This document shows positions 15,432 through 17,478 of a stretch of DNA of 64,000 nucleotides, piece after piece. The DNA comes from Patescibacteria group bacterium (GTDB taxonomy: Bacteria > Patescibacteriota > Microgenomatia > 0-14-0-10-38-17), in assembly GCA_050953885.1 (NCBI GenBank), contig JBMNNJ010000001.1, forward strand, positions 463,437 to 527,436, in the 5' to 3' direction. The translations under genes and the position numbers were made by a program. Every line of letters begins with the position of its first letter. Positions within the stretch are counted from its first letter, which is position 1. The notes beneath the pieces were generated by a model. The model was not told where the DNA came from. It worked only from the letters and a program-made list of their open reading frames with translations, and ran no database searches.

Positions 15432-16176
15432 CTCTATTACTAGAGGTATAGACTATATCACCACCCCGCCATAACGGGGGTTTGGCGTATTATAATGGCG
15501 TTAATTTTTAAGATTATCTTCTTAAAGATTTATCTTAAACAGCCACTATCTAGTTTTTATTAAAAAACTAAGTCGTTACGGGGACAATAATTTGCTCTTT
15601 ACCAAATATTTTTTCACTGTTATGGAAGTAATTGTTCTTTTCTTGGAATAATTAAGAAAAGAAAAACCATCAATATCCTTAGCGATTTTCATGAGCATTT
15701 CCGGCGAGTAATCTCTAGCATTATGAGGATATTTTTTGATTATCCCTAATGATAGTTTTGCCTGGTCATGCTTAATCCTTAAGTAAGGATATAATGCTTC
15801 CAAAACCTCTTCGACAGCCTTGAAGCCAACAATGTTATACTCGCAAATGCCATCATTGCGATCGCGAATATAACCATACTTTAGCTTCTCTTTCAACCAT
15901 AACAGAAACCAACGATACTTTTTATTTTGATAAAAAATAACGCTGGCTTTAACCTGAAAACCAAGACGGTAATCCGATTTCTTAATAAGTTGAAAAAGAA
16001 TACAACCATCACCATCTAAAAATCCGGCGATGTAGGCTTTATCTTTGTCTAGCATAATATTGTCTTCCCTCGGTGTTGTCCTTTGTCGACCAGCTTAAAA
16101 TCAACAAGGATTTCACCGATATTAGCCAAATTTATCTATCATATTACTACGATAGAGCGCAGTATTCTACGCTTTG
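15432..16176 (-). mobile_element. Group I-type intron in 23S domain V, near E. coli position 2593, encoding a LAGLIDADG endonuclease
   Basis: The exon sequence GAGCTGGGTT is interrupted. The exon resumes with GCGTAAGACAGCTTGGTC, which corresponds to CGTGAGACAGTTCGGTC. ORF 15576..16055 lies entirely inside the insertion. Confidence 0.6.
15576..16055 (-). CDS. LAGLIDADG homing endonuclease (single-motif)
   Basis: The motif [13 protein letters not shown] is present and the ORF is located inside the 23S insertion. Confidence 0.8.
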
Positions 16177-16829
16177 AACCCAGCTCACGTAGGTTTTTAA
16201 TGGGCGAACAGTCCAACCCTTGGGGGCTTCTTCACCCCCAGGTTAACCTGAGCCGACATCGAGGTCGCGAACTGGCCCGTCGATATGTACTCTTGGGACC
16301 AACCACGCTGTTATCCCCGGGGTAGCTTTTATCCGTTAAGCCCCGACCCTTCCACGCGGTATCGGGGGATCACTAAGACCTGCTTTCGCATCTGCTCGAC
16401 CCGTCGGTCTTGCAGTTAAGCTGGCTTTTGCCTTTGCACTTTACTCGCGGTTTCCATCCGCAAGAAGCCAACCTTTGTACGCTCGCGTTACCTTTTAGCA
16501 AGCGACTGCCCCAGTCAAACTGCCCACCAGACACTGTCCTAGTTTGCGTTTCCAGCAAACATTAGTCAGAATTGTTATTTCCAAAGAGAGGTGTTTCATT
16601 GTTGCCCCGCCAAAAGGCGGGGCTCCCTCCTACGCTAAACAATTGGAAATAACTCCTCAATATCAAGTTGCAGTAAAGCTCCACGGGGTCTTTTTGTCCT
16701 GCAGTAACTAGGCCGCATCTTCACAGCCATTTCAATTTCGCCGAGTAGAGGTTTGTAGACAGTTGCTTGGTCGTTGGGTCTTTCATACCGGTCGGAACTC
16801 ACCCGACAAAGGACTTCGCTCAAAACTAA

Positions 16830-17478
16830 TTGAGTTTTGGACTATATCTTATCGCCTAAGGCGATTCTAGCGTATAGTCTCTGGGGATTCTAAAAAAAAT
16901 GGTCTTCTCTTCCTAGTATTCATCGTTTCGATTATTTTAACAATCTTTCTTACCCCTTCTAAATGAAGATGTTCACTATTTTCCATTAAGGACAACACTT
17001 GAGAAAATTTCTCAAAATCATCCCTTTTAGATGTTTTAAGGGGATATTGTTTGAAGAAAGGGATAATTATTTCCCTTAATTCTTTTTGGGATCGGACACA
17101 ATAACGATAAAGATCTTCTTTATGGTTATCATCCCTTCTATTAACAAAAAGAGAACCACAACCGAAAAAGTTTTTCATTACTTTTAGGGCTTGTTTACTC
17201 TTTTCCCCTTGAGTGACGATGAACTCCGGCATAATCTGCCAATCGGAAGAAGTAGTCGGATTTTTATGAAGGCTAATTGTAAAACAGCCTTCACCGTCAA
17301 CAAACCCAACTATCCAACCAATTATTTTTAGTCTTTCCTGCTGATTGCCTCTACTGGAAGAATTTTTACTTGGCATAAAAATGACAATTTAATTATGCCA
17401 GAGTATCTCCAGAATAACAAGGTTTTCCAGCATATAGCTAGATTTTACTACGGCAGTGTTTAATGTCCTTACCGTAGA
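16830..17478 (-). mobile_element. Group I-type intron in 23S domain IV, near E. coli positions 1917-1931, encoding a LAGLIDADG endonuclease
   Basis: On one side the exon block ...GAAGCCCCGGTGAACGGCAGCAGTAACTCTAAC is present. On the other side the exon resumes with ...GCGAAGTCCTTTGTCGGGTGAGTTCCGACC. The boundaries are approximate. Confidence 0.5.
16867..17376 (-). CDS. LAGLIDADG homing endonuclease
   Basis: The motif IIGWIVGFVDGEGCF is present and the ORF lies inside the second 23S insertion. Confidence 0.8.
   Translation of the reverse strand: MPSKNSSSRGNQQERLKIIGWIVGFVDGEGCFTISLHKNPTTSSDWQIMPEFIVTQGEKSKQALKVMKNFFGCGSLFVNRRDDNHKEDLYRYCVRSQKELREIIIPFFKQYPLKTSKRDDFEKFSQVLSLMENSEHLHLEGVRKIVKIIETMNTRKRRPFFLESPETIR

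Follow-up and report, generated by a model that had tools for sequence, protein, structure and literature searches.

The DNA analysed here, called the window, is a stretch of 64,000 nucleotides from a metagenome-assembled genome (MAG) that NCBI labels 'Patescibacteria group bacterium', a member of the candidate phyla radiation (CPR). This MAG has a single 23S rRNA gene, part of an rrn operon encoded on the minus strand. The 23S gene is interrupted by two insertions, called introns A and B in this study, and each insertion carries one intact open reading frame (ORF) for a LAGLIDADG protein on the rRNA strand. With a probability of roughly 0.9, both insertions are endonuclease-encoding group I introns. 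The genes and features at the locus are listed below.

22088..20417, minus strand: 16S rRNA gene, followed by two tRNA genes
19794..15139, minus strand: host 23S rRNA gene, with exons 19794..17471, 16820..16169, and 15421..15139 (Rfam and E. coli alignment)
17470..16821, minus strand: intron A, 650 nt, after E. coli U1931 (between U1931 and A1932; site L1931), omega-G at 16821 (E. coli 23S alignment)
17376..16867, minus strand: intron A ORF, 169 aa, intact, single-motif LAGLIDADG protein with GFVDGEGCF
16168..15422, minus strand: intron B, 747 nt, after E. coli U2593 (between U2593 and C2594; site L2593), omega-G at 15422 (E. coli 23S alignment)
16055..15576, minus strand: intron B ORF, 159 aa, intact, single-motif LAGLIDADG protein with GFLDGDGC, in the P6 loop
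15082..14968, minus strand: 5S rRNA gene

Since the 23S gene spans 4,656 nt, it must hold large insertions. The Rfam large-subunit (LSU) rRNA model matched 19794..16092, its last positions being forced into foreign sequence, and a separate search revealed the true 3′ end of the gene at 15386..15139 (LSU model positions 2654-2912). The borders of the insertions were determined from local junction alignments to E. coli 23S rRNA, a whole-gene alignment, and direct reading of the sequence. In the global MAFFT alignment with the E. coli gene, intron A fell in the right place and intron B was smeared; the borders of the latter come from the local alignments and the sequence. The numbering of the E. 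coli ATCC 25922 23S copy used runs 3 ahead after about position 2000 and was corrected by the landmarks A2503, A2602, and Psi2604/2605. Intron A is flanked by the exon ends GUUCUACGGU (5′) and AGCGAAGUCC (3′), and intron B by UUCAAAGCGU (5′) and CGUAAGACAG (3′). The ligated junctions are predicted to be CUACGGU joined to AGCGAAG for intron A and AAAGCGU joined to CGUAAGA for intron B. The GC content is 0.32-0.36 within both insertions versus 0.45-0.56 in the exons. The spliced 23S rRNA would remain about 350 nt longer than that of E. coli. The first-pass annotation had located the two insertions at 16830-17478 and 15432-16176; both are present and their sites, L1931 and L2593, were correctly named, while each of these coordinates is 8-10 nt off.

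Are the insertions fixed in this lineage? Contigs of related strains have 23S exons that match those of the window with 99-100% identity (these and other fetched loci carry three-digit handles such as L162). L162, a contig of a different sample that is syntenic with the window and has the same LytR and S1 genes as neighbours, carries both introns, as does L163, whose contig ends inside intron B. In L163-L165, intron A is present in the same exon context. Further contigs were found via the neighbouring LCP gene. Of these, L168 has intron A only, L166, L167, and L170 have neither intron, and intron B is absent from L169 and L171 where sequence is available. The empty intron A site of L166, L167, and L170 matches the window junction after in-silico deletion of 17470..16821 at every one of the 50 nt compared, and the empty intron B site of six related contigs is identical over the same length to the junction after deletion of 16168..15422. 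Thus, the intron borders are fixed independently of any model. The empty sites leave the intron A border ambiguous by 1 nt, and the U/G rule settles its placement. The coexistence of intron-plus and intron-minus alleles in near-identical 23S genes means that the insertions are optional and were recently gained or lost, and this polymorphism supports the earlier suggestion that they are mobile. L162 shares 100% identity with the window over intron B and 98% over intron A. The strain differences in intron A are all confined to the ORF body, leaving the core unchanged; the ORF differs from those of the strain relatives by 8 synonymous and 4 non-synonymous codon changes.

The two proteins belong to known families. 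Pfam LAGLIDADG_1 (PF00961; cutoff 23.1 bits) matched the intron A protein with 85.3 bits (E 6e-24) and the intron B protein with 40.3 bits (E 6e-10). The two intact LAGLIDADG ORFs and the motifs named in the first-pass annotation hold. In the PDB, the best matches of the intron A protein are halves of two-domain enzymes of the I-OnuI/I-PanMI type (E 1e-42). Because it matches either half of such enzymes, the intron A protein is single-domain and presumably homodimeric. The intron B protein aligned over residues 5-153 with I-MsoI (2.6e-41), I-CvuI (1e-28), and I-CreI (about 1e-21). Its residues D16, Q43, and K95 are the counterparts of D20, Q47, and K98 of I-CreI and are invariant in an alignment of 25 sequences. 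The acidic residues at the motif ends, D16 in GFLDGDG of intron B and E29 in GFVDGEG of intron A, are invariant in the respective family alignments. Judged by these alignments, which had been proposed earlier as a way to assign the families, the putative intron B endonuclease is I-CreI/I-MsoI-like, and the putative intron A endonuclease resembles one half of an I-OnuI/I-PanMI-type enzyme.

Homologs are numerous, with 3,942 found for the intron A protein and 1,023 for the intron B protein. The L1931 endonuclease family resides at L1931 in 51 of 80 fetched loci. Species-representative genomes were scanned with an alignment of the L2593 protein, which yielded 80 loci; in 73 of them, the gene lies in an insertion of 627-836 nt at exactly 23S L2593. 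About two-thirds of these 80 loci are from CPR. The remaining ones carry the labels Gammaproteobacteria, Planctomycetia, Omnitrophota, Clostridia, Saganbacteria, and Thermosynechococcus (locus L074), and one belongs to an Asgard-archaeon bin. The earlier description of such introns as a CPR hallmark that is rare elsewhere thus fits the host, but the rarity is relative, as about one-third of the L2593 loci are labelled non-CPR. As a side observation, locus L065 (MBAA01000200.1, 'Promethearchaeota archaeon CR_4') has an I-CreI-like gene in a 734-nt insertion flanked by bacterial-type L2593 exon motifs and is probably a mis-binned bacterial rRNA contig.

It was assessed whether a group I core surrounds the ORFs, as the first-pass annotation had proposed. 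Every P1 and P3-P9 helix, the P3/P7 pseudoknot, the P4-P6 domain, and the G-binding pair of P7 were located in both introns, and the core covaries over 48 related introns for A and 63 for B, which supports their group I nature. The architecture of intron A comprises no P2, a complex P5, a short P9, and a terminal omega-G. Its elements are listed below; the positions from the P3 5′ strand to P6a 5′ come from the Rfam alignment of ORF-less relatives and covariation, and those of the 3′ core from the Rfam match and covariation.

17448..17477, minus strand: P1, in which exon CUACGGU(A) (17477..17470) pairs with guide UGCCGUAG (17455..17448), with U·G at the splice site
17313..17442, minus strand: P3 5′ strand and 5′ half of P4-P6, whole feature
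17442..17437, minus strand: P3 5′ strand
17432..17427 / 17344..17339, minus strand: P4
17422..17419 / 17351..17348, minus strand: P5
17412..17407 / 17359..17354, minus strand: P5a
17400..17393 / 17378..17371, minus strand: P5b
17338..17336 and 17331..17325, minus strand: P6 5′ and P6a 5′
16821..16896, minus strand: 3′ core, whole feature
16896..16890 and 16887..16885, minus strand: P6a′ and P6′, followed by J6/7 (CCA)
16881..16875, minus strand: P7 (GAGACUA)
16871..16866 and 16865..16851, minus strand: P3′ and P8
16850..16839, minus strand: J8/7 and P7′, AAGAUAUAGUCC
16838..16822 and 16821, minus strand: short P9 and omega-G

The J6/7, P7, and P3′ segments of intron A are textbook elements (CAGAGACUAUACGCUAGA), as are its J8/7 and P7′ (AAGAUAUAGUCC). 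The 3′ part of intron A gave a weak match to the Rfam group I model RF00028 (19.3 bits, E 0.02), which is split by the ORF. Two fetched loci, L035 and L008, have ORF-less L1931 introns of 296 and 234 nt, and these relatives scored 70.7 and 77.7 bits, above the gathering cutoff of 50 bits. Their alignment revealed that P5′, J5/4, P4′, and P6 of intron A are formed by the stretch GAGGCAAUCAGCAGGAAAGACU, which also codes for the conserved 'GNQQER' at the N-terminal end of the protein. From its start in the 3′ strand of P5b, the ORF extends across P5a′, P5′, P4′, and P6/P6a. The main body of the protein is encoded in the P6a loop (L6a); beyond it, the ORF passes through P6′, J6/7, and P7 and reaches its stop codon in P3′. 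The overlap of ORF and core results in the near-invariance of 'NQQE' and of the C-terminal 'LESxETxR' in the protein family. A P5 hairpin 'CUGG...CGG' drawn by eye, P6 as 'CUAUGG/CCAUAG', and P4 as 'AUGCUGG/CUGGCAU' were dropped in light of the Rfam alignment of the ORF-less relatives and covariation, and a CUGG/CCAG pairing proposed by RNAalifold beside P7 was dropped because P5′, P4′, and P6 lie inside the 5′ end of the ORF.

Intron B is group IA-like, with a short P2 and with P7.1 and P7.2. Its elements, located by Rfam and covariation, are as follows.

16058..16173, minus strand: 5′ core, whole feature
16173..16169 / 16160..16156, minus strand: P1, exon AGCGU with guide GCGCU, with U·G at the splice site
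16154..16137 and 16130..16125, minus strand: P2 and P3 5′
16119..16114 / 16075..16070 and 16110..16079, minus strand: P4 and P5
16069..16067 and 16064..16058, minus strand: P6 5′, GGG and GACAAUA
15422..15589, minus strand: 3′ core, whole feature
15589..15580 and 15574..15571, minus strand: P6′ and P7 (GACU)
15570..15551 and 15547..15494, minus strand: P7.1 and P7.2
15486..15481 and 15479..15464, minus strand: P3′ and P8
15460..15451, minus strand: J8/7 and P7′, UGAUAUAGUC
15446..15431 and 15422, minus strand: P9 and omega-G

RF00028 matched on both sides of the intron B ORF, at 16179..15919 (31.1 bits, E 8e-6) and 15575..15430 (31.0 bits, E 9e-6), and the last codons of the ORF double as the 3′ strand of P6.

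In the 48 L1931 introns, 89% of the cells are canonical pairs, compared with 33-46% when the partners are slid. Both sides vary in 42 of the 61 pairs, and P3, P5, P5a, P6a, and P8 covary strongly; the U·G pair at the splice site is invariant in 47 of the 48 introns, and the G-C pair of P7 is kept in 46. In the 63 ORF-trimmed L2593 introns, 88.8% are canonical, compared with 36-44% after sliding by 1-3 columns and with 81% (maximum 82%) after shuffling. This analysis excludes P5a, P7.1, P7.2, and distal P8 of intron B, which MAFFT left unaligned. Both sides vary in 31 of the 50 pairs; P2, P3, and P9 covary strongly, while P1, P4, P6, and P7 are conserved. The splice-site U·G pair is invariant in all 63 introns, and the P7 G-C pair is kept in 61 of them.

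The guides follow the exons of their hosts. At L1931, most hosts have exon and guide CUAAGGU/GCCUUAG, while the window has CUACGGU/GCCGUAG, where A1928C in the exon is accompanied by U to G in the guide. At L2593, most hosts have GAACGU/GCGUUC, while the window has AAGCGU/GCGCU(C), with A2590G in the exon and U to C in the guide. Matched pairs are also found in other hosts, such as CUAUGGU/GCCAUAG and UUAAAGU/GCUUUAA. Because the guides compensate for unusual exon bases, these changes argue for selection on P1 pairing and thereby on splicing.

A pathway can be proposed on this basis. After transcription, each intron would fold into its group I core, and pairing of the internal guide with the end of the upstream exon would place a U·G pair at the 5′ splice site. 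This site would be attacked by an external guanosine held in P7, and the freed exon end would then attack after the terminal G of the intron, joining the exons. Ligation would restore helix 69/71 at site 1931 and the peptidyl-transferase region at site 2593. The single-motif LAGLIDADG protein of each intron is expected to form a homodimer, which would cut an intron-less 23S allele at the insertion site, and repair from an intron-bearing copy would result in homing. The A-type protein may also serve as a maturase that aids the folding of its intron.

Several points weigh against the assignment of both insertions as endonuclease-encoding group I introns. An L1931 intron of Simkania is reportedly not spliced. 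Splicing of introns A and B is predicted from their sequences, as is the endonuclease activity, and a maturase activity is possible. The matches of the window intron halves (31.1, 31.0, and 19.3 bits) are below the 50-bit gathering cutoff of Rfam because the ORFs split the model. The usual L1931 relatives have a P9 hairpin with a GCGA cap after P7′ and then a P9.1/P9.2 extension of 60-100 nt, while intron A has only AAAACU-CAAUU-AGUUUU and the terminal G; with this reduced P9, it could self-splice poorly or need protein help. Finally, the reading frame of intron A is labile at a U tract in the 3′ strand of P6a (16890-16899). The window has U8, which gives a protein of 169 aa ending in ...FFLESPETIR as in the wider family, while 11 of the 12 members of its 90% cluster have U7 and a protein of 161 aa ending in ...RRPFF. 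This homopolymer frameshift polymorphism is located where the coding sequence returns to the core.

Are the insertions group I-derived but no longer spliced, being either retained in the mature 23S rRNA or excised without ligation to leave a fragmented 23S rRNA? I consider this unlikely. It would agree with the Simkania precedent and with the reduced P9 of intron A, which has neither the tetraloop hairpin nor the P9.1/P9.2 extension, but both introns retain intact core helices, G-binding and U·G splice-site pairs, and an omega-G. The guides track the unusual exon bases of the host, implying ongoing selection on P1, and the strain differences of intron A are confined to the ORF body. Moreover, each site is at the functional centre of the ribosome, and 650-750 nt of extra rRNA left there should do harm. 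In a Saccharibacteria MAG (L006), a 687-nt L1931 intron with 73% identity to intron A keeps the same short P9 hairpin; thus, the short form represents a lineage of its own rather than an accident. Protein help for intron A is plausible because the LAGLIDADG protein of a Thermotoga neapolitana 23S intron has been reported to stabilise its own intron in a maturase-like manner (PMC3984707).

An assembly artefact, that is, a chimeric contig of rRNA from different organisms, is scarcely credible. Metagenomic rRNA operons are often misassembled, and a near-identical tract of 2.4 kb shared with L162 could reflect collapsed strains. However, both introns are present with the same LytR and S1 flanks on the independent L162 contig from another sample, intron A has the same exon surroundings in L163-L165, and the exons are 99-100% identical to intron-less alleles. 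The remaining alternative, intervening sequences at helix tips that are removed by RNase III, might draw on the hairpin-type insertions elsewhere in the same 23S gene (e.g., 17638..17519 and 17879..17771), but it is effectively refuted, since neither intron is a single long hairpin replacing a helix tip and both have ORFs, group I R/S consensus elements, a covarying P3-P9 core, and classic group I sites.

A further-reaching interpretation of the two group I introns is put forward tentatively. The window sequence from 14525 to 16898 is 2,374 nt long, has one mismatch to L162, and is roughly centred on intron B; outside this tract, identity is about 96% in the flanking protein genes and only about 92% in the 16S rRNA genes. 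The tract may fit recent homing with co-conversion, the alternative being an assembly effect. It is possible, though I would not rate it as probable, that both introns are active today in a Patescibacteria population in nature, with a fresh homing and co-conversion tract at intron B, and that intron A is a minimal-P9 variant in which about one-third of the ribozyme core is also coding (from P5b to P3′) and which possibly depends on its own protein as a maturase.

The rRNA genes of the window also have smaller insertions. These hairpins in the 23S gene match the description of intervening sequences, unlike introns A and B. An insertion of about 120 nt at 17519-17638, after E. coli position ~1882, forms a near-perfect long hairpin (-60.8 kcal/mol, z -9.3). 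This hairpin was also found in L162 (4932-5052 and 1210-1303) and L168 (1881-2001); in related strains, a further copy with 78% identity lies elsewhere in the 23S gene (between window positions 18467 and 18450), and a similar sequence occurs in the 16S gene of L162. It behaves like a small mobile element within rRNA genes, resembling a miniature inverted-repeat transposable element (MITE) or an intervening sequence (IVS). Another hairpin-forming sequence of about 109 nt is present in the same orientation in both the 23S gene (17771-17879, after E. coli ~1706-1729) and the 16S gene (21895-22001, at 16S positions ~88-194), with 81.7% identity between the two. It is the main reason why the 16S gene, at 1,672 nt, is longer than usual. 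In 23S domain II, a perfect AT-rich hairpin of 135-141 nt is present in L162 (4157-4297) and L166 (113-246) and absent in the window (between 19099 and 19111); 23S alleles that are 99% identical thus also differ in the presence of this insertion. Domain I of the window 23S gene has expansions at 19515-19605 (91 nt, after E. coli 176) and 19387-19422 (36 nt, after 268).

A dispersed, partly palindromic intergenic repeat of about 130 nt was also found, with copies 66-94% identical to each other. The reference copy is at 13602-13744, and others are at 63294-63422, 54360-54499, 55339-55468, 36781-36911, 53644-53761, 39253-39461, 9953-10059, 45594-45755, and 40628-40824, among others. One copy lies between the S1 and LCP genes beside the rrn operon, and the 16S-23S spacer of L162 has a similar sequence.

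For annotation, the result is a 23S gene in three exons and two protein genes that are apparently missing from the NCBI annotation; the S1 and LCP proteins encoded beside the operon match NCBI records of this MAG exactly, and both endonucleases are absent among its NCBI proteins. Surveys and aligners based on rRNA mis-handle such intron-bearing genes. The intron-plus and intron-minus alleles are a natural set that may be used for tests of homing and splicing in an uncultured lineage, and the empty alleles supply natural target sites for both enzymes.

How do the introns compare with known systems? In a survey of CPR rRNA genes by Tsurumaki et al. (2024; PMC11270868), 82% of the 23S genes had insertions, of which 45% were classed as group I. 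LAGLIDADG_1 proteins were concentrated at 23S positions 1917, 1931, 1952, 2593, 2604, and 2657. Insertions at positions 1931 and 2593, which are among 23IS6-8 and 23IS12-14 of that survey, resemble introns A and B in the host group, the gene, the positions, and the single-domain LAGLIDADG_1 proteins, and the group I-like flanks were found weakly by cmscan, as in the window. For I-ShaI, a CPR enzyme of the same study, cleavage of its own insertion site and dimerisation were demonstrated. The I-ShaI insertion is 691 nt in length with an ORF at 83-604, and intron A is 650 nt with an ORF at 95-604. On the other hand, the two introns of this MAG are not individually described in that set, and the P9 of intron A is reduced.

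In cyanobacteria, L1931 and L2593 introns occur together (Haugen et al. 2007; PMC1995217). In Synechococcus and Thermosynechococcus, both sites are occupied within one 23S gene, by introns of 666-675 nt and 744-748 nt, and their single-motif LAGLIDADG genes extend into the ribozyme core as in the window. Like intron A, the cyanobacterial L1931 introns lack P2 and have a complex P5 and core-invading ORFs, while intron B has the architecture drawn for the cyanobacterial L2593 intron. The differences are the phylum, an identity of about 46% between the L2593 enzymes, and the lack of the longer 3′ region in intron A. The L1931 introns of Thermotoga (Nesbo & Doolittle 2003) share the site and a single-motif LAGLIDADG protein with intron A. 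Self-splicing has been demonstrated in Thermotoga, while that of intron A is predicted; the Thermotoga host is a thermophile, unlike that of the window, and for the intron A protein a maturase activity is only possible.

The chloroplast Cr.LSU intron and the enzymes I-CreI, I-MsoI, and I-CvuI resemble intron B in the site L2593, the homologous endonuclease (E 1e-20 to 1e-41), and the conserved catalytic residues, whereas the host is an organelle rather than a bacterium. The target site of I-CreI is CAAAACGTCGTGAGACAGTTTG. The predicted target of the intron B enzyme, CAAAGCGTCGTAAGACAGCTTG, is similar to it with three differences, which suggest that the specificity of the intron B enzyme may have been adjusted. 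This kind of element is already catalogued at 23S positions 1931 and 2593 in CPR, cyanobacteria, and organelles, and the introns of the window are further members.

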